A DNA stretch of 64,000 bases from a virus (IMGVR_UViG_3300014204_000130:1-64000), one strand, 5' to 3'; numbered from the stretch's first letter, positions 1,256 through 61,264 are shown. Numbers and translations: made by a program. The notes: generated by a model from the sequence alone, not told the origin.

Positions 1256-2133
1256 TACGGTTGAACCTCCTGGTCGATGGTCAGCGGCACAGTCCCAGTA
1301 GACGCATACGACACGGCAACGTCTGAGCTCCATGGGCGCAGGATCGAAGAACCGGCGAATATCTCGATACCGAACCCGGGAGTGGCCACAAGGCCCACGT
1401 CAACGAATGCAGATTCTGTGGCCGCGTTGTTTTGTACCACTAAAAATAGGCGATTTGCGATATTGCTGACGGTTGCAGACGTTGCGGTGGAATCTACGTT
1501 GGTAATCGTTGGCGTGGCCAGGCCAACGGTATTACTTCCGATTGCGGCCAAAACTTCACTCGTCTGGGTAGCGTCTTGCGCTGCATAATTGTTTGTCGCG
1601 AGAGTTCCAGAAGCCTGAGCAGCAATGATATCCAGTGTTTCTGAAGCCTGTTGGACCTTTAATTCCCCCACTTGCGTAGTGGTAGATGCTTGTGCCGCGA
1701 GGATGTCAATCGTCTCAGTTGCTTGCTGTGCTATGGCTTCCGTAATCTTAGCTGACAATGATGCTTGCAACGCGGTTAAATCCGCTGTAGAGGTTGCAGA
1801 TGAATTGCTAATTTCTGCTGTAACAGAAGCAATCTCATTAAGCAATCCCATGGTATCCGATCCAATATTTACAACAATGCGCCTATTGGCATCTACTAAT
1901 GCCAACGTAGTAGATCCCGATGCATCTGAAAATATTGGAGATGCTGTAAACGTAGACGATCCAATCGTAATTGTTACATTTCCACCAAGTTTAATATTTC
2001 CATAGGCATCAACAAGAACTGGAACAAATGTACCTGAAGGAGTTTTCCCCTTCATAACCTGTCCAACGGATTGTCCGAAGCACGTTGAAATGATGAATAA
2101 AAAAAGTCCAACAAAAGACAAAATCCGTTTCAT
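1255..2133 (-). CDS. Ser/Thr/Ala-rich protein with N-terminal signal peptide, possibly virion-associated
   Basis: ORF 1255-2190; likely start MKRILSFVGLFLFIISTCFG at 2133 after AAAGGGG. Confidence 0.7.
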   Translation of the reverse strand: MKRILSFVGLFLFIISTCFGQSVGQVMKGKTPSGTFVPVLVDAYGNIKLGGNVTITIGSSTFTASPIFSDASGSTTLALVDANRRIVVNIGSDTMGLLNEIASVTAEISNSSATSTADLTALQASLSAKITEAIAQQATETIDILAAQASTTTQVGELKVQQASETLDIIAAQASGTLATNNYAAQDATQTSEVLAAIGSNTVGLATPTITNVDSTATSATVSNIANRLFLVVQNNAATESAFVDVGLVATPGFGIEIFAGSSILRPWSSDVAVSYASTGTVPLTIDQEVQP

Positions 2134-2138
2134 TTCGA

Positions 2139-2570
2139 TTACCCCTTTACTAATACTAACTTTGCAAGATCGGAAACCCGATTCAACCAACCTTTTAGAA
2201 ACTTCTTGGATGTATTTGTTTTCTTCACAACTCTGAAATAATACAACACTCTCCGAGCAAGAAGCAAATCAATTTCAGAATTAGTTTCTTTCAACCATCC
2301 AATCGATGTTCCAACTCCACAATTGACGCTTGCATCAAAAACAATTAAATCCAAAGGTGATTGGAGTTTATCGCAACCAGAAGGAATCCAATATTTATCA
2401 AAATAAATCTTTCCAGCTTGTTCAACTGTAAGATTTTTAATATCTATATTCATATGATCTCTTTTGTTAATACCAAACTTCGTTTCACCTCCGGGATCTT
2501 GTGGATCGTTCGTATATCCACCTTCCCAAGATAATACGAATTTTAATGCTATTTCAAATCTTGTTTTCAT
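2139..2570 (-). CDS. Endolysin, glycoside hydrolase family 108
   Basis: EGGYTNDPQDPGGETKFGI motif, FDASVNCG, C-terminal FLKGWLNRV. Confidence 0.93.
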   Translation of the reverse strand: MKTRFEIALKFVLSWEGGYTNDPQDPGGETKFGINKRDHMNIDIKNLTVEQAGKIYFDKYWIPSGCDKLQSPLDLIVFDASVNCGVGTSIGWLKETNSEIDLLLARRVLYYFRVVKKTNTSKKFLKGWLNRVSDLAKLVLVKG

Positions 2571-2571
2571 A

Positions 2572-3213
2572 TTACTGTCCTTTTGTTGTAGATGCGATTA
2601 TTGGTTTTACATAAAATACATTACCGGCTGCATCTTGTAATCTATAACCTCTCGATTGATATAACTGTGAAAAATGTTGTTTAATCTCAGATTTCTTTTC
2701 AGATTTATCCGGAATGATCCCTAATAACATTCCAGAAAAATCTAATCCAAAAATAGCTGCGATTATTACAACCCCAACTTTTACTACATTTAACATATGT
2801 CCTTTCCAACCTTCGGGAAATGGAATAAATTTCTTTTCAAGATTTCCCGAACAAGTTACTTGATGACGTGTAACTATCTCTTCTGTTCGTTTTGCATTCT
2901 TTTCAACGAATTCATTCATAAAAGTTGGAAATTGAACTTTAAGTTCATTGATATTATCTGCATGTATATCAAGTTTATCATGGAGTTTGTCTAATACCGT
3001 GACAACCTTTTCCAATTTTCCACTCATGGTCGTCAACTCCTTCTCAAGTGAATTTAATCTCCGACCATAATCAAGACTATCGGTCTCCATTCTTCCGATT
3101 CGCGTGTCAAGTAGTCTATTGTATTCATACTGCTTGTCCATGAAATCTTGCATAGGTCGGCTCCTTGATTTTTGACATAGATATCCACACCTAAAGCATA
3201 CATTATTCTCCAT
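2572..3213 (-). CDS. Coiled-coil membrane protein, putative holin/lysis accessory
   Basis: Heptad region plus hydrophobic VVKVGVVIIAAIFGLDFSGMLLGII; directly upstream of endolysin; true start may be downstream of 3213. Confidence 0.5.
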   Translation of the reverse strand: MENNVCFRCGYLCQKSRSRPMQDFMDKQYEYNRLLDTRIGRMETDSLDYGRRLNSLEKELTTMSGKLEKVVTVLDKLHDKLDIHADNINELKVQFPTFMNEFVEKNAKRTEEIVTRHQVTCSGNLEKKFIPFPEGWKGHMLNVVKVGVVIIAAIFGLDFSGMLLGIIPDKSEKKSEIKQHFSQLYQSRGYRLQDAAGNVFYVKPIIASTTKGQ

Positions 3214-3337
3214 TGTATCTCAAATAAAAACTTTGTAAAAGTTGAAGATGATTGTAGAACGAATATTGTCCAATATTAGACAGTTAGAAGTTCGGAAATT
3301 TTTAATAATGTTAGATATTTTAAAATAAAAAGTTTTT

Positions 3338-4483
3338 CTATGGTAGAGGGAGTGGATTAATATCAATACTTGCAGAAATAACATCTCCACCCAATCCAGC
3401 ATCGGATGCACTTATTGAGGATTGAATCTCAAAACTTCCTAAAATATCTGTCGGGGTATAATATCTTATGATGACGATTCCAGATCCTCCGCTAGTATAT
3501 GCACCACTTCCTCCTCCTCCTCCTCCTCCTCCACTATTGGGTTGTCCATTTTCCCCATATGTACCAGGGGAGTATGTATTTCCTCCACCTCCATTACCAC
3601 CCAATCCAGGTACTCCGGATACTGTACCTATTAACGATCCTCCTCCTCCACCACCATAATAAGTTTCTGTGCCCGTTATATCACATTGGATACCATTTCC
3701 TCCATTACCTCCATGATGATCTGATGCATTTACTCCTGCACTTCCCGCTCCACCACCGCCGCCGCCGCTTCTACCAGCACCATCATCATTATAACCGTTT
3801 CCACCAACATATCCATAGAGTGCAGATCCTCCCATTCCACCATACAATCCACAACCTCCACCACCAGATGATCCCGATGACCCGTCGGGCTCATAATTAA
3901 ACCATCCACCTCTACCACCACCAATGGCAGTAATCCCAAGAGCATCTGAGTTATCCCCACTATATCCAGGATATGCAGTTGTCGCAACCACTATCGGATA
4001 TGTGGTTGCGACAACTTCCATGTCTGTAACATAAGCAACGTCGCCGCCGCCGCCGCCGCCGCCAGCATATGCTCCTCCTCCTCCTCCACCACCAACAACC
4101 AATATGTCTACAGTTCTATCTGTGGGAACTATGAAGTCATCAGATTCAATAAACGTGTGGATTGTATAATTGCCGAAAGTTGTAATTGTTCCACCAGTGC
4201 ATGGCTCTTGTGTATTTATTGGAGTAAATTTCAATCCAGCAAGACCTTCAGCAGAAGTTATAAAATCTCCATCAAGTATAGGAGTTATTCCATCGTTTTT
4301 GAACAATGTTCCTTCAGCAATATTTGTGATCTTGTAGAAAATCGTATCATTGACATCGTAAGGACTTTTTGAAATAACCAATCCTTCAGTAGTTTGTACT
4401 CCGGGTGTGCTCTCTGCACTTGTAACCGTTGGAGTATTCGCTATGATTGTTGGATCGATTATCAACGTCATTCGAATTGGCAT
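3338..4483 (-). CDS. Glycine-rich domain tail fibre/virion protein
   Basis: YTIHTF...DILVVGGGGGGG...GGSGIVIIRY glycine-rich domain. Confidence 0.8.
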   Translation of the reverse strand: MPIRMTLIIDPTIIANTPTVTSAESTPGVQTTEGLVISKSPYDVNDTIFYKITNIAEGTLFKNDGITPILDGDFITSAEGLAGLKFTPINTQEPCTGGTITTFGNYTIHTFIESDDFIVPTDRTVDILVVGGGGGGGAYAGGGGGGGDVAYVTDMEVVATTYPIVVATTAYPGYSGDNSDALGITAIGGGRGGWFNYEPDGSSGSSGGGGCGLYGGMGGSALYGYVGGNGYNDDGAGRSGGGGGGAGSAGVNASDHHGGNGGNGIQCDITGTETYYGGGGGGSLIGTVSGVPGLGGNGGGGNTYSPGTYGENGQPNSGGGGGGGGSGAYTSGGSGIVIIRYYTPTDILGSFEIQSSISASDAGLGGDVISASIDINPLPLP

Positions 4484-4514
4484 TTCAAAATTCCTTGTCC
4501 AAGATTAGACAAAT

Positions 4515-5757: not shown

Positions 5758-8700
5758 TTAATACCCCTTCGCTATGTAATCCACATTTCCCCCGGAGTCA
5801 ACACCACTTTCATTGAATATCTTAACAAAGAATGTTGTTTTTGTTCTTGAGATAACTTCGGTTCTTCTCAATGCACCTACCGCAGATGCTACCACATATG
5901 GAACAATAAAGAAAGATCTTGGGAACGTAATGGTAGATCCACCGACAGCAACTACAGAAGTTCCGGATTGTATTAAATCCGGAACATCGATTGCTGATTT
6001 AAGATTTGTAACATTGGGAATCACAGCAAGATTGTCAGTATGTAAGATTATTTTAAATTGAATTCCTTGAAATCTAATTGCTTCTCCATCTTTAAACAAC
6101 TTCCAATCTTCCCAATTCGTCATATCTTGAGTTGTTCTGACCATTAAAGTGCAAGAAGTATTTAATTCGGAACTGGCTGTACTTTCAATCAGAATATAAA
6201 CGTTACTCAACATATTACTACCAAGGTCTTCGATGGCAGTAATATAATCTCCATCCAAATCAGTTCCATCTAAAGACAAATAGAATTTTGGAAAATCCAT
6301 CCATCTTTTATTAGACAAACTTGCCCAAGTTATTGTTGGAAAGTCTTCCCATGTAGTTAATGCATCTGTGAATGCTGTATGATTATGTGTTCCATCGGCA
6401 TCAGATATAAAATCCAGACTGACTACAATATTAGCCGGTATTAATTTCTCAACTAACAATTCCGATACCGTTGCAGTTGTCGATGAAATTAAGAGTCTAT
6501 TTGTAGCTTTGATCATAAATCTATAGACTCGTTCACTTCCGGGTCTATATGTAAAACTTGTAGTAGGAACTCCACTAGATATAATAAGGCCGGTATCCCA
6601 ATTTGAACCTTCTCTGATTTCATATTGAATAACATCAAGTTCAGGATTAGCATCCCAGATCATATCAACCATATCACCATCTTGATATGTTCTGAAATTA
6701 ACTACTGAAATCGGTGGAGTATTGCTATCTTCAATCAACAATGCAATCTCAGTTGTTGGCGTCAAAACATCGTCTTGTCCGTAATAATAATGCTTATCTC
6801 CATCACCCATATCTATGGCTTTGGATGACATAGTTCCCGTTGGAGAAAGAGAAACTAATCTGAAATTAAATTCTCCATTTCCATGAGGCCATTCTTCTCG
6901 GATTAAATCACTTGTTGATCTTGCAAAATACTTGAAAAGAACATCATCATGTTCTTTGTAATATAAAATAGTTTCAACACAATCATTTACAGGTTTTGTA
7001 ACCGATGCATTTATTACATGAGTTGTAAGTTCTCTTCCAACAATTTCAATTACAGAAAGATCTACAAGTATTGGCTTATCTGGTCTTGGAGTTTGAGGAT
7101 ATTGCTGTTCAACAGAATCGGCAGCAGCATCAAAACTCCATTCATAAACAGCTTCATTGTATTCTTTACATGAAATAGTTATTCCTTTATCACCTCTTGA
7201 AATTTTGATGATTCGGAATTCTTTTTCAGTCCAAGTGTGTTTTACCGATGATATGGAAATTAAACTATTTACATCAAGAGTTGATGGAATATCACTTCCG
7301 ACTGTAATATCTACGGTTTTTAATTGTAAAATATTACGATAGAAGTTGTATTCCGCAATTTTATGTGCAGTTTCATCATCTGAAACGTATTTGTATTCGA
7401 AATTCTCAGTATTCCATTTATTTATCAATGCTTGATGTGTAGCATTTCTTAAATACTGAGAATTCTCAAACAATGGTCCAGTTGGTGGAATTTCTGGAGG
7501 AGTTCCGGGATTCGTATAATCTGTAATCAATGGGGATTCTTCACTACCCGAAGGTTTCTTGTCAAATTTCCCATTCTCAACGTTATACGCATAAGAAAGA
7601 CGAACCCGGTTAATCTGCTTATCATATGCAGGTTCTTTGAAATCTCCAACTATACACTCATATCCAATTGTCCCCGTATCGTCGAAATGTGCTTCTACTG
7701 CTCCAGCAACTTCATCGACCAGTAAAGTCAAAACCCCATCGATTTCCACGAACGTCGCCATGCAATACTTAGCGAATTCATCAAACCATTCAGAAGCTTC
7801 TGATCTCTGAGCGATTACGCCGTCCACGAAAAGACTTTCGTTTGTGCAAAATGTAATTGCGTCGGTAAAATCAATTTTCGCCGTTGGGATACCAAGACCG
7901 AATCCTGCCGGTCCCTTTTCTGTGACGGTATATCTTTCGTTGGACTGACAAGTAATTGGATTCGTTGCCAATTGATACAACAGTGCAGCGGGATTTCTTT
8001 CGGCTTCAGTAGTATGGCCTGTTCGTATACTCAAAATCCCTTTGAGATCTACAAACAATTCAGGAACACTACCATCGGCATTCATTGGAGAAATAGGTTC
8101 TCCATATGTCGTGGGATCTGTTGGATCTGTTGCATCGTAAAACTCTACATATGCAAATCCCGGATAAACTGAAGTAATCGTTCCTTTTGCGGCAATAGGA
8201 TGAGTCTGTTGTTCTTTTGCATCTTCCCAACCCGTTCCACTCCAGATGATAATTCCAATCTTTTTGGATTCGTCTGTTAATTGGAAAATATTTAAACTTG
8301 CATCTCTTGTCTTGTCATACATGACAACTTTATCGAAGTAAACTTTATCGATAGACGCAAGTGGACCAGATCCAATCATGAATCTATGAAATACTTGATC
8401 TACCCAAGGTATCTTTAATCTCTTAACAGTTCCGATACAAATAGGACAAGCATTCCAATTTTCATTGATTCCTGTATCGGAATAATAATCCTGTGCAATT
8501 TGTGCATCTGGGATTGGCTGTTGCATGTAAAGAGATAACTCTTCACTTACAGTAACATCTATTTGCAATCCAAATGAATTGATCTCAGTTATTACACCAT
8601 GAAATGTTTTAACATTCCCAAGTGCATCATCATGTTCAAGAATTACTTTCTTATTCAACAGAGAATAAGCAGCGTGAATACTATTCAATGAATGGTCGCT

Positions 8701-8862
8701 GTTGTCAATAGTTAATTGAACTGTTCTCTTACGCGCTCCGAATTTATCAGATACTTCGAATACACGTTCAATTTCAAATCCTTTAACTAATCTGGGTTGA
8801 TAATATATCCCATTCTTATCAGTGGGTTCGGTTGAATAGAATGCCGCTAATTCATATCCCAT
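5758..8862 (-). CDS. Tail tip/hub (host-specificity J-like) protein with FN3-like domain
   Basis: 1034 aa after Dit; INRVRLSY hub-like segment, WDANPELDVIQYEIR FN3-like segment. Confidence 0.75.
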   Translation of the reverse strand: MGYELAAFYSTEPTDKNGIYYQPRLVKGFEIERVFEVSDKFGARKRTVQLTIDNSDHSLNSIHAAYSLLNKKVILEHDDALGNVKTFHGVITEINSFGLQIDVTVSEELSLYMQQPIPDAQIAQDYYSDTGINENWNACPICIGTVKRLKIPWVDQVFHRFMIGSGPLASIDKVYFDKVVMYDKTRDASLNIFQLTDESKKIGIIIWSGTGWEDAKEQQTHPIAAKGTITSVYPGFAYVEFYDATDPTDPTTYGEPISPMNADGSVPELFVDLKGILSIRTGHTTEAERNPAALLYQLATNPITCQSNERYTVTEKGPAGFGLGIPTAKIDFTDAITFCTNESLFVDGVIAQRSEASEWFDEFAKYCMATFVEIDGVLTLLVDEVAGAVEAHFDDTGTIGYECIVGDFKEPAYDKQINRVRLSYAYNVENGKFDKKPSGSEESPLITDYTNPGTPPEIPPTGPLFENSQYLRNATHQALINKWNTENFEYKYVSDDETAHKIAEYNFYRNILQLKTVDITVGSDIPSTLDVNSLISISSVKHTWTEKEFRIIKISRGDKGITISCKEYNEAVYEWSFDAAADSVEQQYPQTPRPDKPILVDLSVIEIVGRELTTHVINASVTKPVNDCVETILYYKEHDDVLFKYFARSTSDLIREEWPHGNGEFNFRLVSLSPTGTMSSKAIDMGDGDKHYYYGQDDVLTPTTEIALLIEDSNTPPISVVNFRTYQDGDMVDMIWDANPELDVIQYEIREGSNWDTGLIISSGVPTTSFTYRPGSERVYRFMIKATNRLLISSTTATVSELLVEKLIPANIVVSLDFISDADGTHNHTAFTDALTTWEDFPTITWASLSNKRWMDFPKFYLSLDGTDLDGDYITAIEDLGSNMLSNVYILIESTASSELNTSCTLMVRTTQDMTNWEDWKLFKDGEAIRFQGIQFKIILHTDNLAVIPNVTNLKSAIDVPDLIQSGTSVVAVGGSTITFPRSFFIVPYVVASAVGALRRTEVISRTKTTFFVKIFNESGVDSGGNVDYIAKGY

Positions 8863-8874: not shown

Positions 8875-9642
8875 CTATACAATTTCAACGAATGATAGAG
8901 AATGTGATGTTATTTGTGCAAACTCATATGATCTGGAGATATTTCCAACTGCTTTAACAAGATAACATTTATTTGGATCTCCCTCCCAATCGTTATACAT
9001 AACTATGGGAGATCTTGTTAAACGCAACTTATCATATTCCGCTTTCGCAATTTTATCAAGATTTATAGCAAAAGTTCTCCGGGTTCGTCCAATCTTAGAC
9101 GATTCAGAATAACCACTGTCGAATTCAATGATATTTTCTTTTGGAACGATTTCAATTTGATATCCGGCCTTTGGATTCCAGATTTCTACGAAATTTCCAA
9201 CTAATAGATTACCGATCTTGAAATAAGTTGGTTCGAATAATGGTGTTTGTGTAGGAATTAAAATCCTGAGATATCTGTAATTGAATGCAACAAGTTCTTT
9301 GAAGTAATGCATGTAATTCTCTTCATATACTTCATCCTTGGTGAGTCCAGTAATTACTGAGGAATATGAAGGAGTATCCCAATCTCCAGTAGCTGTCGTT
9401 GCATTCCCTTGAATTGTGAATGCTGCAAAGTTGAATCGATTCAAGAATAATCCAGTTAATGACTTTGCAGATCCAAAATCATACATAATCCAAGATTCGG
9501 TAATTACCTGACTTTTCCAAGATTGGACTGGCTTAATCGTCTTCAGATTCGAAGATGTAAATATTGTATCTTGTGAAGAGTGTGTAATCGCTACGCTTGT
9601 ATCTTCTGAACTTGCAGGAGTGTAATCGTATAATATTTTCAT
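8875..9642 (-). CDS. Putative distal tail protein
   Basis: Immediately after tape measure; YRYLRILI galactose-binding-like fold signature. Confidence 0.6.
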   Translation of the reverse strand: MKILYDYTPASSEDTSVAITHSSQDTIFTSSNLKTIKPVQSWKSQVITESWIMYDFGSAKSLTGLFLNRFNFAAFTIQGNATTATGDWDTPSYSSVITGLTKDEVYEENYMHYFKELVAFNYRYLRILIPTQTPLFEPTYFKIGNLLVGNFVEIWNPKAGYQIEIVPKENIIEFDSGYSESSKIGRTRRTFAINLDKIAKAEYDKLRLTRSPIVMYNDWEGDPNKCYLVKAVGNISRSYEFAQITSHSLSFVEIV

Positions 9643-9643: not shown

Positions 9644-12600
9644 TTATAGTCCCGCCAATTTACGTTTGAGTTCTTTTACCAATTCTGCCGCTTTTGGATC
9701 TTGGTTCTTAATGGCATTGGAAATTTCTTTCGCCATATCACCAATGCTTCGGATATCCATGAAGATTATATCACCTTTTGAAGTCTTTGCCTCTTCTGCA
9801 ATACGAAGTTTCATTGTATCTCCAATTGCACCAAGCATGTCTTCCAAAGCCTTCATAGAATCTTCAGATTTGGCCTTGAGATGTTCAGATTTCTCCAACA
9901 TCAATTGGAACAGTTCTTCTTGAGCATTGAAGTATGCATCACTTCCCTTGGAAGCCGAAGTGATCTTATTTGTGATAACATCTTTCGTCCAGTCGAAATA
10001 TGCTGTGAATGGATCAACAGAACCGGAAGCGATTGAACTCCAACCACTTCCAAGATCCATAGGTGCTTTGTATTGCACTCCATCAATTACGCTCATGTCA
10101 CCACCGGCATCTTTGAAGTTGGTGAATGCACCTTGAAGATCTTTCCAAGAGTCATAACCCTTCATATCGCCAAGCATTCCGGTCTTATAGGTTGCTTGTC
10201 GAACTTGAGATTGCAATGCTTCGAATGCACCTTGAGAAAGATTTGCAATTGTTTCAACGGTGTTGGAGAGATAACCTGCATCCACCCATGATGAAATCTG
10301 ATTTGCAATTTCAGTGTAGTATTCAGAGATCTTCAGATTTGCATCGGCAATTGCTTGCGCTCCACCGTATTGGAAGTCATTTTCTGTAAACATTCCAATT
10401 GTGCCTTCGATGCGTTTAATTTCATCAAAAGTATCTTTATATTTATCCTTGTCGGTATACAGATTTCGATTGTTGGAAGCAGTATTCAAATTGGTATTTT
10501 CAAGTGTTGCTTTCGCAACAATAGCGGAAGAAATCTGTTCCATTGCCATTTGCACAACTGCATTGCCTTTACTGCCTTCATTAAAGATGGCAAAATTCTG
10601 GAATTCGGGAGTTAAAAACTGTTTCAAATTTCCAAAGATACTTTCCATTGTATCTTTGCCCATTGTTATATTATTGGAGGAATTTGACATTGCTTGAGTT
10701 ATTTGAGTTGCAGCAGCAGATTGTCCAAGATATTTATCTTGATTTTCTACATTTGCAGCACCAAACATGTCATACGTATATTTTCCAAAATTATTAACAG
10801 GAATGAATTTCATGGATGTAAATGCTACTATGTCAGATACCATAGATTTCTTAGCATCTATTGATTTCTGAGTCATAGTTTTATATGCATCGATTGTGGA
10901 TGTTATTAAATCATCTATCGTTGTTTGCATATCCCAAATTTTATCACGAAGTTCATCTTGAACTTTGAAATCTCCAGATGCTCTAGCATCTACAAACATT
11001 GCTTGAATCGTAGCAAGATACTGTTTCCGATAATTAACTTCTTGCTCAATAGCAGCAACTTCATTACTCTTTTTCAACTCATTCAATCTCTTTGTATTAT
11101 TGTATGATTCTTCAGCAGATGTTTTCAGAAGATCATAATATGTTTTCATACTTGCATCGAATGCAGTTGTATCCGCAGCAGAATGATTTTCCTTTGGCCC
11201 TTTGAACCAACCATCTCCAGAAGACCATGTAGAATACGTTGGTGATCCAAAACCAAAATTTCCAATATTAGACGTTCTTCCAGACATCATATACTTTTCA
11301 GCATCGGTATTTCGTCTTGTTAACATTGTTTCCCGAGAAGATGAGGCTGCTTGATATGCAGCTTGTCCGGCCTGAGTATCGTCTTTCGCTCCACCCCACA
11401 ATCGACCGGGTTGGGAAAGAAAGCCAGTTAGGAGTGAGAGGGGGAGAACAGCGGGATTTGCAGAAGTGAATGCCTTTGCGCCAGCCCATGCAGAACTAAG
11501 AGTTCCAAGGATTCCACCCTTTGAACCAGCACCTGTAGTTGCTCCTGCAATTGCATCCTTTACAGAAGCACCGTTGTCGGAATAATACATCATTTCATCG
11601 ATTTGATCTCTGGACATACCAGCCATACTCATGGCTAATTGTGACTGACCGCCAAACAATCCACCGATGATAGAATTAGCGATTCCACCACCCGTGGATG
11701 CTCCCGTATTAAGATCGATTCCAAAAACCATCTTGGTAGCAGATACAGCCATCATCTTGGAAATAATCTGTCCAATGGTAGACAAAATCGATCTACCCAT
11801 ACTTCGGAACATCTCATTCAAGTTGGAAAGTTTCCCTGTCATGAAGTCGAAGAATCCGGTTTCGAATGAGGAAGACAATCCATCGACAATGGTTTTACCG
11901 GCATCGAACATCTGTTCTCGCCAATTTTTTAACGCAACAGCAGAAGCACCCATTCCGAATTGGAGGGCTTCAAGTTCACTGTATTGACCCTGTTCAAGTC
12001 CCTTTTCAATCGCACCATACACTGAAGTCTTTGCTTCCCGAGTAGGAGCACGATTGAGAAGATCTTTCATAACTGAAGGAATTCGGAAATCAGATCCTTT
12101 TAATTCAACATTAAACCGTTCCAAGTCATATTGCCATGATTGGAAGGGTGAAAGTTTCTTTACAGTTCCCATGAACCGCTTGAGTGCGGATTCCATTTCT
12201 TTTAAGTTTTTAAATAAAGTATCGTCTTCAGTTCCATTTGCAAATGCATCATCCAATTCAATTTTGAGTTCTTTCAAACGATTGGTGATTCCGTCTTCAA
12301 TACTTATTCCTGCATTATCTGGAGCAAATGCAATTTTATTGATTTCTCCTGCAAATTTGGTTGCGAGTTCTGGAAATTTAAGATTTTCCAATTTTGAAAA
12401 AGTCTCTGCGAGATTTAATATAACAGAGTCTTCAGCCTCAGATGCATTTAACTTCCCAAATTCACCGATTGCATCGTACAATGGGCGATATGTTTCCATT
12501 CTTATACGTCGTTGTGCTAAGTCGGATTGTGCAGTTTGTTTTGCTGCCATTTCTGGAGTATATTTGACAGATTTATCAACGGCTTGATCCCGGAGTATAT

Positions 12601-15600
12601 TTAAATTGGTTTTACGTCCGAATTCGTACATTGATTGTATTTGAGATTCTACAGTTCCATAACTCCCCACAACACTCTTCACAACATCTTCCATCATCAT
12701 TGATTTCGACAATTCGGAAGTTTTCATGAAATATCCGTCGAAATCTTTGAACATTGTTTCGACGACTCTTAACGTATCTGGAAGTGCTGTTGCTAAGTTA
12801 CTTGAAATTGTTTTTGCCGCAGTTCCAATAGTTGTAAAAACTGATCCAATTGAACTTCCATCGGAACCATTAACTTTACTGAGTAAACTTTGTGGAGAAA
12901 TTGTATTTAATGAATTTGCAAGTTCCGGAGAAGTAATATAACTTTTTTTCTCAGATAAATATTTGACAATTTCATACAACTTCTCTTTAACACCACTCAA
13001 AAAACCGGTCATTACATTTCCGGCATTGTCTTGAATTTTTTGCATGGTTGCTTCATAACCATACTTTTCATTTTCATTGGTTGACAATGTTTTTCTGAAT
13101 GTATCTCCAATATCCAATGGTTGAAGATTGGTTGTGAATGCCTTGAATTGAAGATCTGTAAGTTTTATGAATTGAGCTTTGTCATTTTGAGTTTGGGCGT
13201 ATCCAGAATTTATACCTTTCAAAATTTCATCATAAGTAATCAATGGACGATTACCTACTTTTTTCCTTGCTTCTTCATCGGCTTTTCTTGCCATCTGAGT
13301 AGCATAATCAACCGGTCCCTGTCCTTCTCCATAGAATCCCATGTGGATTGATTTTGGTTTCGTTGGAGCTTCTTTTAAAGATTCGAATCGAATATTATTT
13401 CTTGCCCATTCATTCTTAGATTGTGCATCTTTTAAAGCTTTTGCACTTTCGGTTGTATTCAATCCACTTCCAAGAAGGATTTCTTTAAGTCCCGAATTTC
13501 GTCCGGCGATTGCCAGTTTGATAAATGTTTCTGGATCATTGTAAAATTTTGTATTCGCAGACAAAGCTTGAACATCCAATGCAAGATTCTTTGGATGATC
13601 TCCAGTTTTACTATGGGAAAGATCATTTGCAGAATAAATTGCAGGATCATACACACCTTTGAAAAGTAATTCAAGGTCGTCATTGATCTTTGAAAATGTT
13701 CCAAGAGTATCTTGTGTAAATCCTGAAAGGTTTACCGCAGGCCCGGAAGTTTTGAAACTGCTTGGATCAATATAACCGAGAACGGATTTTATCTTTCCGG
13801 CAATGGCTTCGCCGACGGTATCCCCCATCGGTTTTGCAACTCCCAGAAGTTCTTTTCCAACCCCTACAACATTTCCAACATTGTGAAGTACAGTTGAAGG
13901 ATTGCTAGCTTCTTTTACAACCGCCCAAACATTCTTCATGAAATCTTCAGGAGTTTTCCACGATTCGGGATTTGTTTGAACTCCGGATTTATCACCCTTA
14001 TCTGCTAAATCGGCTAAGTAAGTTTGTCGTAAATTGATTTTCCTTTGATTGTCTGCATATCCTTCAGATGTTATATCTGAAGTTAATTTTTTAAGTCGGT
14101 TAAAGGTGGTAGTTGCCGCATCTAAAGCCATGCCATTAGCTGTGGGGCCTAAATATTCTGGATTTTTATTGAGAATCTGGATTTTTTGTGCGCTGATTTC
14201 AGCCTCAAATGCACGGTGTAGATAATTTTTCTCAGGATTATTCTTGTCGGGATCTTTGGCGATATTCAACAACAATTTTGACATAGATTCGGGAAGCATT
14301 GCATTCCAATGACTTCCTTCACGAATACTGGCATATTCTTTATCTTTCTTTTCAAGTTGATATGTAATTGAAGGAGTTCCAACGCCACCAACATCCTTCA
14401 AATAATCAATTGCCTTACCGAATCCAGTATTCTCGAATAGATCCATATATTCAATTACTTTGCCGAATAGATTGGGAATTAAAACAAACAATGAATAAAT
14501 TCCAAATGCACTTTTACCCATCATTAAAAACGCATTCGTTAATCCAGTTACTAATGATCCACTGGTTAACAATCCCAATGAAGATAACATTTTTGTAAGT
14601 CCACCAACTGCTAAATCTTTATGCAGCCAAGTAAAGATTTCAACGATTGGAACTCGGAATGCAACGATTGATCCAAGAACTCCAAGTAAAGATCTTGCAA
14701 CTGAAATAATATTACCAAACCCAAGAAACCAAACACCAAGAGCTACTTCAACCAAACCAACATCACTTATAAATCCTTTGGTTGAACTTCGAATATAATC
14801 AAATAACGATTTCGCCTTTGAAAGTAGATCTCCTAGAATAGTTCCAATCTTCGGGATAACTACTTTCGCGATTTCGTAAAATTCTCTAACACCATCTGAA
14901 AGATATTGGAATGTATCTTTTAATCCCTTTTGAAATGCAGTTGAAAAAATAAATCCATTGATATATTGGAATATATTAACCAATCCTTCAGATGCACTTT
15001 GAATTGTATCTGTGATCGAAGAAAGATCGATTGAGAAATTTGTTCCGAATAAATTGTTTATTGCAATTGTTGATTTGAGTACAAATTCTTTTACAACTTC
15101 CCAACCATCTTGGAAAGCATTGGACATTCGTTTTGCAAATATAGATGCATTTATTGAACTTGCAAACGTTTCAAATTCAACCTGTACTTTTTTAACATCA
15201 CTTACAAACGAATCATAAAACCCCATATTACCAATTCGGGTTTTAAGGACATCAAATTGCCCTTGAATCTTTTGTAAGACAGGGCCGATTTGTCCAGCAG
15301 TTAATTTCAATGTTTCGGCTGGAACAAGATCTCGTAAATTTCCAGCCAATCCTTTGAGTAATTTCGGAACGTCTTTTTTGATTGAAGAAAGAGATTTCCC
15401 GTCGGTGGTCAACATGACATCGACTGGAATTTCATATCGTCTTTTGATGGACATGAAATCGCCGGAGAGTGTTTCTCGCAATGAATATAATGCTCCCTGA
15501 ATTCCCCACTCTGGTTCAATCTGTGAAAGAGCGATAACGATATCCCAGACATCTTTCATGTTTTCTTCAAGATGGATGGAATCTTTAAACATGGTTTTCA

Positions 15601-23366: not shown

Positions 23367-23454
23367 TGAATATAAATAACATGAAAAATCTCCAGAATCA
23401 AGATCGATGTCTGGAGATTCGTCTAATATTGGACAGAAAATAAACTTCCTAAAA

Positions 23455-34764: not shown

Positions 34765-34775
34765 AGGAGTTTGAG

Positions 34776-42143: not shown

Positions 42144-42230
42144 ATTTCTTGCCTCGCGCACGCGGGCCTGCGTATGCGTATGCGCGTGCGCGAGGCGTTT
42201 AAAAATTTTGTCCAAGATTGGAATTTCATT

Positions 42231-45517: not shown

Positions 45518-45687
45518 ATAAAGCATCCTCCCGCGTGTGCGCGTAGGAATTGCACGCGGGAGGATGGGAGGGGGGGGGTAACACCCTGTCAGAAAATATT
45601 TTGAAATTCCAATGAACTCCTGAGTGGTACGTATGGAAAATTACTTTACGTATAAATTAAATCTTTTGTTAGACGAAGGAATTGTAA

Positions 45688-51530: not shown

Positions 51531-51645
51531 TCCTCTCCCATGCATCCACGATCTTGTGGAAGGAATGCATTCACGTCGAGTCGTGACATGGGAATTGCAA
51601 ATTCTGTCTTTTGTTGGACAGAAAATTAAACGTAGGAGAATCTAT

Positions 51646-51840
51646 ATGGAAAATTTTGACATTCATTTCAACGGTTCTGTTCGGCCTACAATTTCCGACT
51701 TCGAATGGAAGCGGAAAAAACAGGAACGGGAATTCAACTTCAAAACCAAACGGAATGACGACAAGAGGAACAAGCCTCTCCGGAACGTCGGATTCCGTGC
51801 TCTCTTCACGTATGCAACGGAGGAATCCGACAATGAATAA
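51646..51840 (+). CDS. Small basic hypothetical protein
   Basis: AGGAG RBS; MENFDIH... Confidence 0.6.
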   Translation: MENFDIHFNGSVRPTISDFEWKRKKQEREFNFKTKRNDDKRNKPLRNVGFRALFTYATEESDNE

Positions 51841-52486
51841 TCATAAAATTCTTCAAAAACTCCATGCGTGTTCGGAAGCCGTAAAATGGGCTTCACAGTT
51901 TCCCACGTTACAAGAGGCATGGAAATCATGTCCTCGCGGGGATTGGATGTTGTGGGTAGCGTCCAAATTAAAAATTGACCAACGAGCACTATTCCTCGCA
52001 AGAGGACAATGTGCAAACACTGTCCGGCATCTCATGAAAGATGCCAGAAATATCGCGGCGGTGGATGCAACCATCGCCTTCGGCAAAGGGGAAATCCCAG
52101 AGATTCCAAAAGATGTCATTGCAGCAGCATATGCTGCTGCTGCTGATGATGCTTCTGCTTATGCTTCTGCTTATGCTTCTGCTGCTGCTTATGCTGCTGC
52201 TGTTGCTGCTGATGATGCTTCTGCTTATGCTTATGCTTCTGCTGCTGCTGATGCTGCTGCTTATGCTGCTGCTTATGCTGCTTCTGCTTATGCTTCTGCT
52301 TATGCTTCTGCTGCTGCTTATGCTGCTGCTGTTGCTGCTGATGATGCTGCTGATGCTGATGCTGCTTATGCTGCTGCTTATGCTGCAAGAAGCGAAAATA
52401 GACAGAAAACCGCAAATATCTGTCGGGAAATTCTAACCGATGAGGTATTCTCAAAGTTGAAAAAATTGGAGGATTCCGACGAATGA
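51833..52486 (+). CDS. Phage protein with Ala/Tyr low-complexity tract
   Basis: GGAGG RBS; ACSEA..W...AW..CPRGDWMLW; AAAYAAA repeats. Confidence 0.75.
   Translation: MNNHKILQKLHACSEAVKWASQFPTLQEAWKSCPRGDWMLWVASKLKIDQRALFLARGQCANTVRHLMKDARNIAAVDATIAFGKGEIPEIPKDVIAAAYAAAADDASAYASAYASAAAYAAAVAADDASAYAYASAAADAAAYAAAYAASAYASAYASAAAYAAAVAADDAADADAAYAAAYAARSENRQKTANICREILTDEVFSKLKKLEDSDE
52121..52388 (+). repeat. GCT/TAT/GAT low-complexity coding repeat
   Basis: Direct reading. Confidence 0.9.
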
Positions 52487-53215: not shown

Positions 53216-53279
53216 ATTTCTGAAACTCTGTCCAGAAATGGACAAAAATTAATGCCGAAAGGCAGAAAGGTTACACAAT

Positions 53280-53885
53280 ATGACTACTCCAGTTGCTAAG
53301 AAGACCATTGGATCTAAGGTTGCTGCTCCCGCCAAGACCGTTGTTGCTCCAGTTGCAATGGCATCTGCTACTAAGCAATGCCCTCCGAATCCTCCACTTA
53401 ACGCAACCCCGGTGAAGCCCGTTCTTCAAGCGGCAACCGTTCTTTCCTCCGTTCTTGAAAAGAAGCGCGGTGGTGGGTTGACCAAGGAAGCCAAAGCCAA
53501 GAAGGAAGCCGAAAAGACGGCCAAGCTCAAGATCATTCGGGGAAAACTGGTCGCCTCACTCCTTGCCGATTCCACTCTTCTGGCTGACCCGTCGGAAATG
53601 GCAGCCGCAATGATCTCACTAGAGGATAAGGTTGTCCTCCAATACGACCTCGAAAACCCTTCCGGTCGTGTCAAATCCGACGGCCATGATGGACGCGGCT
53701 ATACCCCACAAGAAGTGGCTCAGGTTGCCGTCTTTTCTTGGACGCAGAAGTATGGTAAGAACATGACAGAGGAACAGGTAATGGATGCTTGGAAATTCGC
53801 CATGTGTAACCCGAAGGCTCCTCGTGCAAAGACCAAGAGCGTGAAGCCTACGACTCCCCCGGCGATTGCTGAAATTCCAGAATAA
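53280..53885 (+). CDS. Lys/Ala/Pro-rich protein, possibly nucleic-acid binding
   Basis: Histone-H1-like composition; own leader and terminator. Confidence 0.7.
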   Translation: MTTPVAKKTIGSKVAAPAKTVVAPVAMASATKQCPPNPPLNATPVKPVLQAATVLSSVLEKKRGGGLTKEAKAKKEAEKTAKLKIIRGKLVASLLADSTLLADPSEMAAAMISLEDKVVLQYDLENPSGRVKSDGHDGRGYTPQEVAQVAVFSWTQKYGKNMTEEQVMDAWKFAMCNPKAPRAKTKSVKPTTPPAIAEIPE

Positions 53886-53958: not shown

Positions 53959-54849
53959 ATGTATATTGGAATGCATCCAGATAGTGAGCAGTTTATCAGA
54001 TTGCAAAACAAGAACAGATTTAATATTGAAAAACTTCAAGAGGTTGATCTTGAAGAACTTGGACATGTTAAAGTCCAGATACTTTTGGACATCGTAGAGG
54101 ATGAATATGAATGTCCGAAGTGCGAACGGCATGACAAAGATCTTGAGAATTGGAAGGAACAGATTCACGAGATGATTTCAGAGATGTATGCCCTCGTGAA
54201 CTCTGTCCGGGAAAACATGACAGATGATATTACTCCCGAAGAACGCAAAAAGTATTTCGAAGAACATTGCAAGAAATTACAAAAAGCATACTCCGATTGC
54301 ACATTCATCGGAGACGATTTCAATTTCGCAGAATAATCTGTCCAATATTGGACAGAAATTAAATACAGGAGCATTCATTATGCGACAAGCACAATTCGAT
54401 TCAACCGACTTCGACCTTCTTTCAGAACTCGTGAAGCCTCAACACTTCACGAACATCCCACCAATCATCCTTCACCGGTGGGTTGTGTGTTCTCAGTGTA
54501 AGCGAGACATCGACCGTTCCAAGGATACGGTCATCGTAACTGGTGGCAAAACTATCTGCCACAATTGCTATTTGTAAAAAAGGAATTGAATATGAAACCT
54601 CAAACAATCATTCTTCCAATCTTCGAGATAGTCGTTGAAATATTTCCCGGAGGATGTGCAACCATCACTTCCAATTTGAAGAAGGGATATGGTTCAAAGT
54701 CGAACTACGATCCTCCAATCAATGTTGCAATTGATGTAGTTGAAAGTTTGATTCTTGCCCATGCATGTGCTGGAATTGATATCACAGATCGAAGGTATCA
54801 AGAAGGAATCAAAACAACGGTTGAGAAGATTGTAAACGTTTATTCTTAA
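53959..54849 (+). other. Three hypothetical ORFs (53959-54336, 54380-54577, 54592-54849)
   Basis: GGAG/AAGGA RBSs; CxxC in first two. Confidence 0.6.
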
Positions 54850-54899
54850 ACAACTTCGTCTTTTTAATAGACGAAAATTAAACCATAGGAGATTTCCAA

Positions 54900-56039: not shown

Positions 56040-56137
56040 CCACTCGCGCCGCCAGACAAAGGGGAACACACATCGGGAACCCGGCGTCCAATATTGGACG
56101 CCAAATTAACATCCCTTAAATGGGAAGGAGTATTACC

Positions 56138-57082
56138 ATGAAGAAACTCAATCCAGTTGAACGGCCTAACCGAACCGTATTCTCTGCAACCAACAAGGCC
56201 GGGAAGTCCTTTGATATCATCGCATATCAAATCGTATTCGGGTTCTCAATCAAGTCGCTCGACATGCAAGTCCTTCACGATGAATGGACGCGGCTTGGAT
56301 TTGATCCCAAATATATGGGAAAAGTTACGAAGGATGGTGTAATCAAACGCGCCATTGCCGAAACTGTACAGGATCTCCGGAATTCCAATTACACATACAA
56401 AAAGATTGGAGATGAGAATTCCGATGTTGTTGTCTACAAAATCTTCAAGATGGAGTGTGAATCCATCAATGGAAAACTTGATGGTGAGATGAAACCATAT
56501 GCTCACATCACATATCGAAAACAATCGGAGATGATTGAAATCGATAATCCAGAAATCGAATCCATGTTGAATACACATTACAAATTCTTCACCTTGAACT
56601 ACATGAATCTCGATTACACACGTTATACCAAGACCATGATTGAACGGGAATCTGTATGTCTTTCACTTCGGCCTCAAGGTGGCGTCTACATTGTCCCGGC
56701 GAAGGACAAAGACATGGTTTACAAACTCAAAGAATTGTTCAATCGGGTTGATCCTGATGGTGACTTTCATATCACCGAAATTCCAGATCTCGATGGTGCC
56801 AAGGAGTCCATTGCATCGGCATATCAACCGGTGATGCAAGACATGTGTGCAAAACTGGAAGAGAAGATCACGGAATTGGAATCCAAGGGAAAGCAACTTT
56901 CGTCCAAGAAGCGGCAAGAGTTGTTCGACGAGGTTTGTTTCCTTGGAAAAGATATCGAACTCATGATGGACGTGTCCGAATACGATTTATCCAGCGGTAA
57001 GGATATGTTGATCAAGGTGAACGAACATATCATGAACTTTACTCCAATTGCAAAGGATGAAACTGAAAACAAGGAGGACTAA
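56138..57082 (+). CDS. Conserved protein between MoxR and vWA genes (DUF6744-like)
   Basis: LRPQGGVYIVP motif; context. Confidence 0.6.
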   Translation: MKKLNPVERPNRTVFSATNKAGKSFDIIAYQIVFGFSIKSLDMQVLHDEWTRLGFDPKYMGKVTKDGVIKRAIAETVQDLRNSNYTYKKIGDENSDVVVYKIFKMECESINGKLDGEMKPYAHITYRKQSEMIEIDNPEIESMLNTHYKFFTLNYMNLDYTRYTKTMIERESVCLSLRPQGGVYIVPAKDKDMVYKLKELFNRVDPDGDFHITEIPDLDGAKESIASAYQPVMQDMCAKLEEKITELESKGKQLSSKKRQELFDEVCFLGKDIELMMDVSEYDLSSGKDMLIKVNEHIMNFTPIAKDETENKED

Positions 57083-57083
57083 C

Positions 57084-58328
57084 ATGTCCATCGTCGAAAA
57101 GAATCCATACGCTGACTTTAAGTATGGGCAGTGTGTCCGTAATGATCGTCCATTCCAAGACAAGATCATGTGGGAGGAGAAATATGATAAAGGTTTCTCC
57201 GAAGACTGCAATGATCTGTTCCAAAGTTTGTATCAGAAAGACGTGAAATTTAATGGAGAAGGAAGAATTAAAACTCTTCTGGATTCCATTAAAGACAGCA
57301 ACGACTTCAAGCAATTGAAGGAACGCACAAAAGGGAATCATGTCCTTGCATATATCGCCATGAAGGACATGATTCCCCAACTGCAACAGATTGCAAAGGA
57401 ACTTCCGAAGGACAACAAACCGCAAGACCAAAAGTCCAAGGATCGTATCCGACAGGGTATGCGGCTTGCAGTTCAAGAAGCCGCAGATACCGTAGAGGAA
57501 GCCGAGGGTATGATCGATGTTCTCGGTATCGGTAAAGAGGGTGGAATTACTACCGATGAAGACGTTGGATCTGCAATTGAATCAGCCAATCGTTTCGCCA
57601 ACGATGAAGTGTTCAAAAGAATCATGGAAATGGCGGGACGGTTCGAACGTCAGGCAGATAGCCAGATTAAAACCAATTGCAGTCACGGACTGGACGAATT
57701 GGTAGGAATCGATAGTTCAGACGACATCGCAAATGTTCTCCCGGAAGAATTGGCCGATGACGATCTATTCAATTTGAACTTTGTCGAATCCAAGTTGCAA
57801 GTGAATAAGTTCCGGGGTAAAGAACCCAAAGAGAAAGGAGCCAAGATTGTTTGTATTGATCGATCCGGAAGTATGGATGGATGGAGATATGAATTCTCCA
57901 GTGCAATCTTGTTTGCAATGTATCTGGTTGCCAAACAAGATGAACTTCCAATGTTCGTGAATCTCTTCGATGTAAATGTTATCTCTCGTGAAATCAAATC
58001 CACGAAGGATATCATGTGGATCATGGGGAAATATATGGGTGGTGGAACCGACTTCAATCTTCCACTCACCCGGTCATTCGAACAAATAGAATCCAATCCC
58101 GAATTCGAGAAAGCCGATATCGTATTCATCACAGATGGATTCGATACACTTTCCGAAGATGTTATGAACAAAATTCAATCAACGAAGAAACGAATTTCAT
58201 TGAAGATCATTTCATTGTTGATTGGACGTGGAAGCACAGAAACATTGAAAGGATTCTCCGACAAAGTATTCCAATGTTGGAACGAAGCAAGCAGTAAAGA
58301 ATTTTGCGAGGAGGTATTCACGGTATGA
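57084..58328 (+). CDS. vWA-domain protein (ViaA/CoxE-like)
   Basis: CIDRSGSM, GGGTDF, ADIVFITDG; AGGAGG RBS. Confidence 0.9.
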   Translation: MSIVEKNPYADFKYGQCVRNDRPFQDKIMWEEKYDKGFSEDCNDLFQSLYQKDVKFNGEGRIKTLLDSIKDSNDFKQLKERTKGNHVLAYIAMKDMIPQLQQIAKELPKDNKPQDQKSKDRIRQGMRLAVQEAADTVEEAEGMIDVLGIGKEGGITTDEDVGSAIESANRFANDEVFKRIMEMAGRFERQADSQIKTNCSHGLDELVGIDSSDDIANVLPEELADDDLFNLNFVESKLQVNKFRGKEPKEKGAKIVCIDRSGSMDGWRYEFSSAILFAMYLVAKQDELPMFVNLFDVNVISREIKSTKDIMWIMGKYMGGGTDFNLPLTRSFEQIESNPEFEKADIVFITDGFDTLSEDVMNKIQSTKKRISLKIISLLIGRGSTETLKGFSDKVFQCWNEASSKEFCEEVFTV

Positions 58329-60000: not shown

Positions 60001-60030
60001 ATCAATGGTGAGCGCAAACGAAAATTCTTA

Positions 60031-60059
60031 TTGACATTCTTAAAATTCTCTGGTAATAT
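60031..60059 (+). promoter_or_regulatory. sigma70 promoter
   Basis: TTGACA-N17-TAATAT. Confidence 0.7.
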
Positions 60060-60117
60060 CTACACGTAAGCTATCTCTACCATTACGGTTGAGAAATTAA
60101 ATCAATGGAGATCACAT

Positions 60118-60740
60118 ATGAAAATTTCAACAGCAGTAAATCATCAGCGTCGATTCATCCAGCGGGTTCGTGATGTCTACTCTCATGCAAACATCTGTAT
60201 GTGGAGTCATGAAGAATTGATCAAACACACACTCGAAATCAAGACATCCCCAGAATTCAAACGATGTCCTCGACATGTCACAGAATATGTCCGGGGATAT
60301 GAGATGGCATTGTATGATCAGCTTTGGAATAAGATGGTTTCCTGTTTCATATCATTGGAAAGCGGAACCATCTACTTCGGGAAGTATCCTGAAAGTCCGT
60401 CCAAGATTACATTCCTTGGACATGCATGGCCGGGATTGAAATCCCCCGATCTCAAATTCTATACCAAACGTCCCGATGATGAAATTACACAAGAAAGATT
60501 AGACAGAGGAAAATTCAAATGAATATTAAACGTCCAAATTTATTACGTGACGCTCTACATAATACACATACGATGTCTGGTGCTTCCATCGACTATGGGA
60601 GAGGATGTGTAGTATCTGCGGTTGCAACTCTTATGTCGATTGGTGAAACATTCGACAATGCATGGAAGACAGTTCAATCATGTCTACCCGTTGGATATCG
60701 AATTGAATGCATTCCAGAAACATGGAAGATTGAGAAATGA
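60118..60740 (+). other. Two hypothetical ORFs (60118-60522, 60519-60740)
   Basis: GGAG RBS; ATGA coupling. Confidence 0.6.
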
Positions 60741-60835
60741 GACACGTTTACAATTCAAAATGGGAACGACAATCGTAACGCGCATTAAAATCTGTCCAAT
60801 CTTGGACAAAAATTAAAATACAAGGAGAATTACAA

Positions 60836-61201
60836 ATGGACTTTTCAAAATTGAGTGAAACTCGTGGAATCATTCTTTCTCGGCTTGAACTGATCGATGA
60901 TCTGATTACTGTTCCGTCAGGATTTACACAGAGTATCCGAATCGGATATACCAAGGATGATCAACCGACATTCATATCTCTTTCAGCCAAACACGGTCTT
61001 GCATATGCAATCGATGAAGGATATGAAAATAAATATCTTCAATTGAATGAAATACCGAAACATCTTCGCCGTCTTGCACTTAATGAAACAATCAATCTTT
61101 TGAAGTCTCTTGAAATTTGGATTTCAAAAGAAACAGACTTGAATATGCAATCAATCCTCAATGCCGACGAATACATTAAATCTTTGAAGAAAGGACAATA
61201 A
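60836..61201 (+). CDS. Hypothetical protein, paralogue A
   Basis: AAGGAG RBS; similar to next ORF. Confidence 0.75.
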   Translation: MDFSKLSETRGIILSRLELIDDLITVPSGFTQSIRIGYTKDDQPTFISLSAKHGLAYAIDEGYENKYLQLNEIPKHLRRLALNETINLLKSLEIWISKETDLNMQSILNADEYIKSLKKGQ

Positions 61202-61264
61202 GAACACACGTCGGAACCAAAGGTCCAATATTGGACAAATATTAAAAATATAAGGAGAATTTAT

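Follow-up and report, generated by a model that had tools for sequence, protein, structure and literature searches.

A 14-bp palindrome dispersed across the genome of an uncultured phage is a probable binding site for a symmetric protein

Introduction

Cluster O mycobacteriophages such as Corndog carry a 17-bp dyad repeat, TGTTCGG-N3-CCGAACA, whose function is unknown and for which the authors of its description predict a dimeric DNA-binding protein (PMC4351075). Here, we analyze a 14-bp palindrome, GTCYW-N4-WRGAC, that recurs along an uncultured virus represented by IMG/VR record IMGVR_UViG_3300014204_000130 (G000; 108,145 bp, rated 88% complete). The window is the first 64 kb of this record (64,000 nucleotides), and positions are given in its coordinates unless marked as genome positions. 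The palindrome is enriched, has a fixed geometry, is under selection inside genes, and is built of two halves that vary independently, and its core recurs in unrelated phages. We conclude that the motif is a genuine, selected site whose reading takes place in DNA, and we consider it probable that a symmetric protein binds it.

The Cluster O repeat appears to be the closest published analogue. Like that repeat, which is present in more than 30 copies across a nontemperate siphophage, partly in intergenic and partly in coding sequence, the motif described here has more than 30 dyad copies in both kinds of sequence, and no orientation bias, and the phage that carries it is not evidently temperate and encodes a ParB-domain protein, as Cluster O phages also do. 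The Cluster O repeat differs in sequence and in its 7-N3-7 geometry with invariant arms, whereas at the present site half-sites of two to three types can replace one another, a subclass of copies stands in stereotyped gene leaders, and the core is found in unrelated phages. Dyad repeats of the Cluster O type in lytic phages are known but have never been explained, and the role of the ParB-domain proteins common in phages likewise awaits explanation. The present case adds clean evidence of sites written into conserved genes via synonymous codons, a set of rules for the site (half-sites that interchange, an outermost base that is soft, and strict one-turn spacing), and an identical core in unrelated phages, among them the roseophages CRP-1 and CRP-345, which are in culture.

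A preliminary description of the window had likened the motif to stoperators, which are asymmetric, oriented with transcription, and part of a temperate life cycle (PMC4351075). The stoperators of Cluster A mycobacteriophages (L5 gp71) are likewise tens of short sites spread over a whole genome, between cistrons and in some genes, but the analogy fails: the present site is palindromic, its asymmetric copies show no orientation bias (7 forward, 8 reverse), and the record has no match to a tyrosine integrase or to an immunity repressor (HTH_3).

Other comparisons come from plasmid and bacterial systems. KorB of the IncP plasmid RK2 and Noc of Bacillus subtilis have 12 and about 70 dispersed palindromic sites (OB and NBS, respectively), some of them inside genes. 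These sites resemble the present motif in length (13 to 14 bp), in dispersal from 12 to about 70 copies, and in lying partly in genes or far from promoters, and a protein of the same fold is encoded here. OB and NBS centers are fixed, whereas the center here is variable, and here protein and sites do not co-occur across relatives. The 14-bp operators of 434/P22-type Cro and CI repressors have outer bases conserved one helical turn apart around a variable, A/T-rich center. The present site shares their length, outer-base conservation, and tolerant center, but such operators are few per genome and confined to promoters.

Results and Discussion

Copy number and geometry

The exact pattern occurs 31 times in the window, against a mean of 0.70 (maximum, 4) in 100 dinucleotide-preserving shuffles, and 42 times in the whole record, where a control pattern read backwards is absent; overall, the motif is about 40-fold over-represented. 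The underlying outline GTC-N8-GAC is found 48 times where 7.2 are expected. An N9 spacing between GTC and GAC is found 17 times (expected, 7.6), the remaining neighboring spacings are at background, and direct and divergent arrangements of the two triplets are not enriched, the convergent N8 arrangement alone being so. When both strands are pooled, the symmetry grows by two bases per side to YY-GTC...GAC-RR. A position-weight scan at a threshold of at least 10 bits returned 56 sites versus 3.8 in Markov-3 simulations, and each of the 14 best one-mismatch sites deviates at the outermost G or C and nowhere else. The commonest exact 14-mer, GTCTTTTGTTGGAC, is present nine times, and GTCCAATATTGGAC is present three times in the window and four times in the genome. 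By our own calls of open reading frames (ORFs), the genome is 92% coding, and the 8% that is noncoding holds approximately 16 to 20 of the 42 copies.

Chance and base composition were ruled out as the source of the motif by dinucleotide, Markov-3, and synonymous-codon controls. Even spacing of the copies was also rejected, with a nonsignificant coefficient of variation of 0.84; a coefficient of 0.69 (P ~0.01), obtained after post hoc collapse of a cluster at 46 to 48 kb, was not relied on. No Rfam family matched at gathering score, and a literature search found no paper containing the motif. The preliminary description had counted at least 25 copies, and all 26 positions that it listed are exact matches, to which five overlooked exact copies (at 7822, 15439, 30914, 53730, and 57148) can be added. 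The N9 variant and six one-mismatch copies that it reported are all present, and its cluster of eight copies at 46.0 to 48.1 kb is real.

Short palindromes are avoided genome-wide, so that this palindrome runs counter to the trend. For example, CTGCAG is found 0 times versus 11 expected, GTCGAC 0 versus 12, and GAC-N3-GTC 0 versus 8. CTGCAG, CGGCCG, GACGTC, and GTCGAC are all absent (7 to 12 of each expected), and GTAC stands at 0.31 of expectation. AGGCCT, CAGCTG, CCGCGG, and CTCGAG are absent from the record as well, with 4 to 12 expected per restriction-type palindrome, and GAC-N0/3/4/5-GTC is nearly absent.

Selection inside genes and half-site grammar

ORFs of at least 80 amino acids hold 26 copies, against 1.37 (maximum, 5) in 200 synonymous-codon shuffles, an enrichment over codon-shuffled controls that the preliminary description had proposed as a test. 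The coding copies are spread over all three frames, and the encoded peptides are unrelated, which rules out a repeat at the peptide level. At the terminase large subunit (TerL) site at 32005 to 32018, the encoded peptide SSTIGL is identical in a relative (G002), and six synonymous differences produce the motif in this phage only. A small mobile insertion was ruled out as well: coding copies keep the reading frame, and flanking sequence is common to only 3 of approximately 860 site pairs.

The half-sites are GTCCAAC or GTCCAAT in 44% of cases and GTCTTTT in 21%, the others being GTCCAT and GTCTAA, and they pair at random. Self-complementarity at positions 4 to 7 does not exceed the level set by half-site frequencies alone (permutation P = 0.86). 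The center is variable, with TA, CG, TG, CA, or GA at positions 7/8, and positions 5/6 are constrained to W only. The commonest copy, GTCTTTTGTTGGAC, is asymmetric and could form at most 3 to 4 base pairs. This independent combination of half-sites favors a DNA-binding protein with two-fold symmetry over a hairpin. Repetitive extragenic palindromes (REP) and bacterial interspersed mosaic elements (BIME) are extragenic only and form stable hairpins, unlike this motif, with its 26 copies in coding sequences (CDSs) and halves lacking covariation. The features fit a two-fold symmetric reader of duplex DNA that recognizes outer bases at a distance of one helical turn and allows the A/T-rich center to vary.

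Contexts of the copies

The phage is siphophage-like, with a structural arm encoding TerL, portal, protease, major capsid, and tail proteins. Copies inside CDSs lie in a tail J-like gene (7822 to 7835, within 5758 to 8862, minus strand), in the CDS at 8875 to 9642 (minus; copy at 9087 to 9100), in a 2,526-amino-acid CDS at 9644 to 17224 (minus; 11770 to 11783 and 15439 to 15452), in the head maturation protease gene (26399 to 26412), in the CDS at 27858 to 29000 (minus; 28782 to 28795), and in the TerL gene (30914 to 30927, in addition to the site at 32005). Further such copies are found in a vWA-protein gene (37256 to 37269, within 35524 to 37698, plus), in the CDS at 40224 to 41783 (plus; 40847 to 40860), in the gene at 53280 to 53885 (53730 to 53743), and, in weaker form, in the CDS at 57057 to 58328 (57148 to 57161). 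The preliminary description had placed copies in essential CDSs, and for TerL and the head protease family matches back this, as they do the identity of the tail J-like protein; the names "Dit" (8875 to 9642) and "tape measure" (9644 to 17224) rest on size and position, neither protein having a family match.

Other dispersed copies include GTCCAACAAAAGAC at 2106 to 2119, 20 nt past the stop of the gene at 2139 to 2570 (minus); 3268 to 3281, intergenic and flanked by tail fiber-like genes; 4497 to 4510, in a 31-nt intercistronic spacer with the minus-strand order stop, 4 nt, motif, ribosome-binding site, and ATG; 23421 to 23434, between the genes at 23579 to 24742 (minus) and 22791 to 23366 (minus); and 44097 to 44110, about 350 nt upstream of a helix-turn-helix (HTH) gene. 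One-mismatch copies with the outer G changed to T lie at 9515 to 9528, 21736 to 21749, and 22342 to 22355; others lie at 31879 to 31892 (in TerL) and 42210 to 42223. The best one-mismatch copy, TTCCATCGTTGGAC at 35402 to 35415, is within a ribbon-helix-helix (RHH)-like gene, and an N9 variant, GTCTAACAATTGGAC at 35149 to 35163, lies 160 nt upstream of that gene.

A stereotyped arrangement is seen between 51.6 and 61.3 kb, where seven copies stand in gene leaders in the order stop codon, 3 to 50 nt, motif, A(G/A), AAATTAAA, AGGAG, and ATG. These plus-strand copies are at 51606 to 51619 (motif, AG, AAAATTAAA, AGGAG, ATG), 53230 to 53243 (ahead of the gene at 53280 to 53885), 54340 to 54353 (where the perfect palindrome reaches 20 bp, TCTGTCC..GGACAGA), 54858 to 54872 (the reported N9 variant, with a MoxR-like gene next at 54900), 56086 to 56099 (ahead of 56120 to 57082), 60794 to 60807 (ahead of 60836 to 61201), and 61223 to 61236 (ahead of 61265 to 61639). 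A sigma-70 promoter with TTGGAC as its −35 element was ruled out because a −10 element 17 nt downstream would sit on the Shine-Dalgarno sequence or the ATG, and a Bacteroidota-type promoter was ruled out by inspection. Other copies stand at the ends of transcription units, just ahead of intrinsic terminators (47533 and, in genome positions, 65354, 65968, and 103005).

A crowded region, 45.66 to 48.17 kb, holds eight exact and three near copies. The orphan HTH gene lies directly upstream of this cluster, a dead HNH gene within it, and a strong promoter-like site downstream. Its left edge is a weak near-copy at 45661 to 45674. The copies at 46020 to 46033 and 46477 to 46490, the latter 4 nt past the stop of the gene at 46158 to 46472, share 19 of 20 nt of right flank, with the 14-mer inverted. 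The copies at 46819 to 46832 (GTCTTTTAAAAGAC) and 47533 to 47546 lie in the left and right arms, respectively, of a 34-bp direct repeat around the dead HNH gene (46915 to 47520), the right arm being followed by an intrinsic terminator and then immediately by a one-mismatch copy at 47588 to 47601; another copy, at 46875 to 46888, is 26 nt ahead of the ATG of this gene. The 34-bp repeat takes in the gene's own stop codon. A second HNH-type gene, at 65477 to 65965 just outside the window, is likewise bracketed by motif-containing direct repeats. A copy at 47637 to 47650 is in a noncoding control region, with the next, at 47670 to 47683, 33 nt away, and the cluster ends with 48071 to 48084, approximately 230 nt upstream of the promoter-like TTGACA-N17-TAACGT, and a near-copy, GTCTTTTAAAAGAT, at 48157 to 48170. 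The cluster had been described as next to a putative terminus, which finds no support, as GC skew tracks the direction of the genes and the window is only a portion of the genome.

Relatives, unrelated phages, and bacteria

Three relatives were compared (G001 to G003), each more than 100 kb long and with TerL proteins 47 to 57% identical to that of this phage; the closest TerL kin, at 69 to 75% identity, are not among them. Their own repeats are local arrays. In G001 (123 kb), for example, at least 13 full copies and additional partial copies of a 16-bp palindrome, GATTGATTAATCAATC, lie at 68 to 77 kb, paired and ahead of small early genes, as a local array with a sequence unlike the present motif. 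Intein and LAGLIDADG domains (PF14890 and PF14528) are present in several TerL homologues (among P0004, P0005, P0016, P0018, and P0021), whose sequences are longer by about 400 residues; the TerL of this phage does not have these domains. An exact 14-mer scan with GTCCAACAAAAGAC returned chance singles and one unrelated paralogue family only.

The core of the motif is found in phages unrelated to this one. An IMG/VR scan for TGTCCAAYRTTGGACA revealed at least 48 stretches with three to eight copies of GTCCA-N4-TGGAC among the 118 matches listed, and nearly all of these multicopy stretches, among the matches listed, belong to podoviruses of the HMO-2011 type, phages of marine Alphaproteobacteria whose portal proteins are approximately 75% identical to those of CRP-1 and HMO-2011. 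In these phages, the copies crowd the early region, mostly 20 to 34 nt ahead of start codons, with oriented flanks. The cultured Roseobacter phages CRP-1 and CRP-345 have five and six copies, respectively, at matching positions, one of them within the integrase gene, and, as cultured phages, they make available a phage-host pair in which to look for the reader experimentally; HMO-2011 itself has no copies. A complete 44-kb phage with terminal repeats (G013, 44.2 kb) carries nine core copies dispersed every 4 to 5 kb, and just downstream of one of them lies a gene (10414 to 11646; L318) that joins a ParB N-domain to a beta-class DNA methyltransferase.

In bacterial genomes, the core is present as chance singles or small island-like arrays (Pseudoalteromonas, Mariprofundus, and a Rhodobacteraceae genome). 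A contig of Pseudoalteromonas sp. 0303 (L396) has three tandem GTGTCCAACGTTGGACA copies 61 to 62 nt apart at 3253 to 3391, in the spacer after a 150-amino-acid gene that is CI repressor-like by eye and with a PAPS reductase-like gene nearby. This HTH gene has no relative in the present phage, and the array is a simple system in which a reader of the palindrome might be identified. A contig of Mariprofundus sp. KV (L352) has five GTCCA-N4-TGGAC copies at a 40-nt spacing (1425 to 1602) within a tandem repeat of greater length, much like an array of iterons or a centromere. A host-chromosome regulon was ruled out, as the core forms only local, island-like clusters in the three bacterial genomes.

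Candidate readers

Four proteins of this phage are candidates for reading the site. A 595-amino-acid ParB/Noc/KorB-fold protein is encoded outside the window (genome positions 98561 to 100348; L002, 14561 to 16348) and matches the ParB N-domain (PF02195). Residues 269 to 500 of its AlphaFold model match Noc, ParB, and KorB in Foldseek over approximately 210 to 226 columns (E, 2e-9), with a TMt of 0.65 against KorB 8qa9, a span that can be read as the N-domain with an adjoining putative helical/HTH DNA-binding domain. About 265 residues at its N terminus are disordered, a coiled coil lies at its C terminus, and its arginine patch is altered (GFGRYDA, not GERRxRA).

The other candidates are encoded on the plus strand of the window. 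An orphan 352-amino-acid protein (44459 to 45517), directly upstream of the site cluster, has an HTH at residues ~119 to 182 and a heptad-rich stretch, with no relatives beyond weak Cro/C1-like leads. A 66-amino-acid protein (35310 to 35510), RHH-like by eye but without a family match, lies downstream of a promoter-like TTGACA-N17-TATTTT, and its own gene holds the best near-copy. An HNH-fold protein with two zinc ribbons (46915 to 47520) has lost catalytic residues, with DH changed to DY and CH to CM; its zinc ribbon is duplicated, as a 41-nt DNA repeat at 46919 and 47087. No match to a DNA-binding family was obtained for some 30 other early ORFs. The orphan HTH, RHH-like, and dead HNH proteins fit the lineage-specific appearance of the motif but not its recurrence elsewhere.

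Proposed function and alternatives

The best-supported reading is that the motif is the binding site of a putative dimeric protein acting chromosome-wide, given its single fixed spacing, independent half-sites, lack of orientation bias, and selection at synonymous sites. The preliminary description had proposed the same, and each of these properties agrees with it. In this model, the motif would act in cis as duplex DNA, recognized by a sequence-specific protein with two-fold symmetry, whether dimeric or made of two modules separated by one helical turn; either 7-bp half-site can be GTCCAAY, GTCTTTT, or GTCTAAK. In early operons it may serve as an operator-like element 3 to 15 nt past a stop codon and about 26 to 29 nt before the next start, with a similar setting at transcription-unit ends, and inside coding sequence it may provide docking sites every few kilobases over the whole genome. 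The likeliest effect of binding would be control of read-through or silencing, or the loading of a protein that spreads along DNA.

Several observations weigh against this proposal. In the leader-type copies, the flanks are oriented and the start codon follows at a constant distance, and a 5-bp hairpin is possible in five of the seven, so that for this subclass an RNA-level role is conceivable. The three relatives carry the motif at control level only. Searches with tblastn, tblastx, phmmer, and 61 profile hidden Markov models of proteins encoded near sites revealed no protein common to this phage and other motif-bearing lineages. The recurrence of the palindrome in unrelated marine phages changes the question of who reads it, and because the three bacterial genomes examined show no chromosome-wide enrichment of the core, a reader supplied by the host is unsupported too.

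As a special case of this reading, the sites could be parS-, NBS-, or OB-like loading sites for the 595-amino-acid protein, which might slide or spread from them to silence, activate, or organize the chromosome. The parS/Noc analogy drawn in the preliminary description is plausible because a Noc/ParB/KorB-fold protein, with a ParB N-domain and a predicted HTH domain, is encoded. Its own gene contains an 18-bp perfect palindrome (99320) and a near-copy (99223), much as the B. subtilis spo0J gene contains a parS site; however, two sites per 1.8-kb gene are not unusual (about 24% by a Poisson estimate from 56 sites). The 16-bp form TGTCCAACGTTGGACA matches canonical parS at 10 of 16 positions, and the methyltransferase fusion gives the 44-kb phage, in which copies are likewise dispersed, a ParB-domain protein of its own. 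The comparative data are not supportive. A ParB-like gene, 29 to 31% identical, is a core gene of G001 to G003, yet no dispersed or recurrent palindrome is found in these relatives, nor does any recurrent one lie in or near the gene, which weakens the proposal, and the HMO-2011-type phages have the palindrome but no detectable ParB-like gene. In addition, the center of the site varies where those of parS, NBS, and OB are fixed, and the arginine patch is altered as described above. No ParA or KorA partner turned up, although no search was aimed at either. On balance, we regard loading by this protein as possible but doubtful. A broader version would make GTCCAA-YR-TTGGAC a second, widely traveling parS-like "address" of mobile elements, serving here as the loading site of a ParB/Noc/KorB-type clamp that coats or silences a lytic-phage chromosome, and adopted by unrelated marine phages and prophage-like islands via nonhomologous readers or a shared unrecognized one; this is speculative, and we hold it to be unlikely.

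Three further explanations each cover only part of the facts. A leader or intercistronic hairpin acting in RNA processing, stability, or translational control would account for the many copies, here and in HMO-2011-type phages, that are intercistronic, 3 to 15 nt past a stop and 20 to 34 nt before a start, with oriented flanks, and some perfect copies do reach 8-bp stems. Yet the half-sites are independent, 15 of the 42 copies are limited to 3 to 4 pairs, neither strand nor orientation is preferred, genes contain over half of the copies, in all frames, and a hairpin function would not fix one sequence across unrelated phages, which together make this explanation quite improbable. A recombination site had also been suggested in the preliminary description. 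As a target or landing pad for endonuclease-mediated recombination (a nicking or homing site or cassette boundary), the motif has only local support, in the motif-bearing direct repeats around both HNH-type genes and the similar flanks of the inverted copies at 46020 and 46477. Beyond these loci, the rarity of shared flanks, the loss of both catalytic histidines from the HNH protein at 46915, the cost of 42 self-targets in essential genes, and the origin of coding copies by point substitutions instead of insertions make it very unlikely. Least probable of all is a recognition site for a restriction-modification or DNA modification enzyme. The bipartite GTC-N8-GAC outline does resemble Type I/IIB sites, a PAPS reductase-like gene and a generic S-adenosylmethionine-dependent methyltransferase are encoded, and the 44-kb phage has its ParB-methyltransferase fusion; but restriction targets are avoided in this genome and not enriched, positions 4 to 6 and 9 to 11 are constrained too, and no protein of this phage was matched to a DNA methyltransferase family.

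Other features of the genome

The replication genes comprise a family-B DNA polymerase, an RFC-like clamp loader, RecA, ligase, primase, and SbcCD-like proteins. Along with the absence of PF00589 (tyrosine integrase) and HTH_3 matches, no sigma-70 region 2 match was found in the 88%-complete record. Two in-gene tandem repeats of other kinds are present: one with an 18-nt unit at 61780 to 62070, in a bactofilin/beta-solenoid-like gene (61642 to 62283), and a GCA/GCATAA-rich repeat at 52150 to 52400, in the gene at 51755 to 52486.

A nucleotide-metabolism block at 32796 to 35216 encodes a MazZ-like dATP/dGTP diphosphohydrolase domain (PF18909), a ThyX fragment, an HD protein, and a dUTPase. The MazZ-like and HD proteins raised the question of a Z-genome, which is unsupported because PurZ was not found in the record; some other manipulation of the nucleotide pool is possible. 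ARAGORN detected no ordinary tRNA anywhere in the record, and one tRNA-like gene on the minus strand (genome positions 80538 to 80633; L001, 16538 to 16633) with a four-base anticodon, gtaa, to which no amino acid was assigned.

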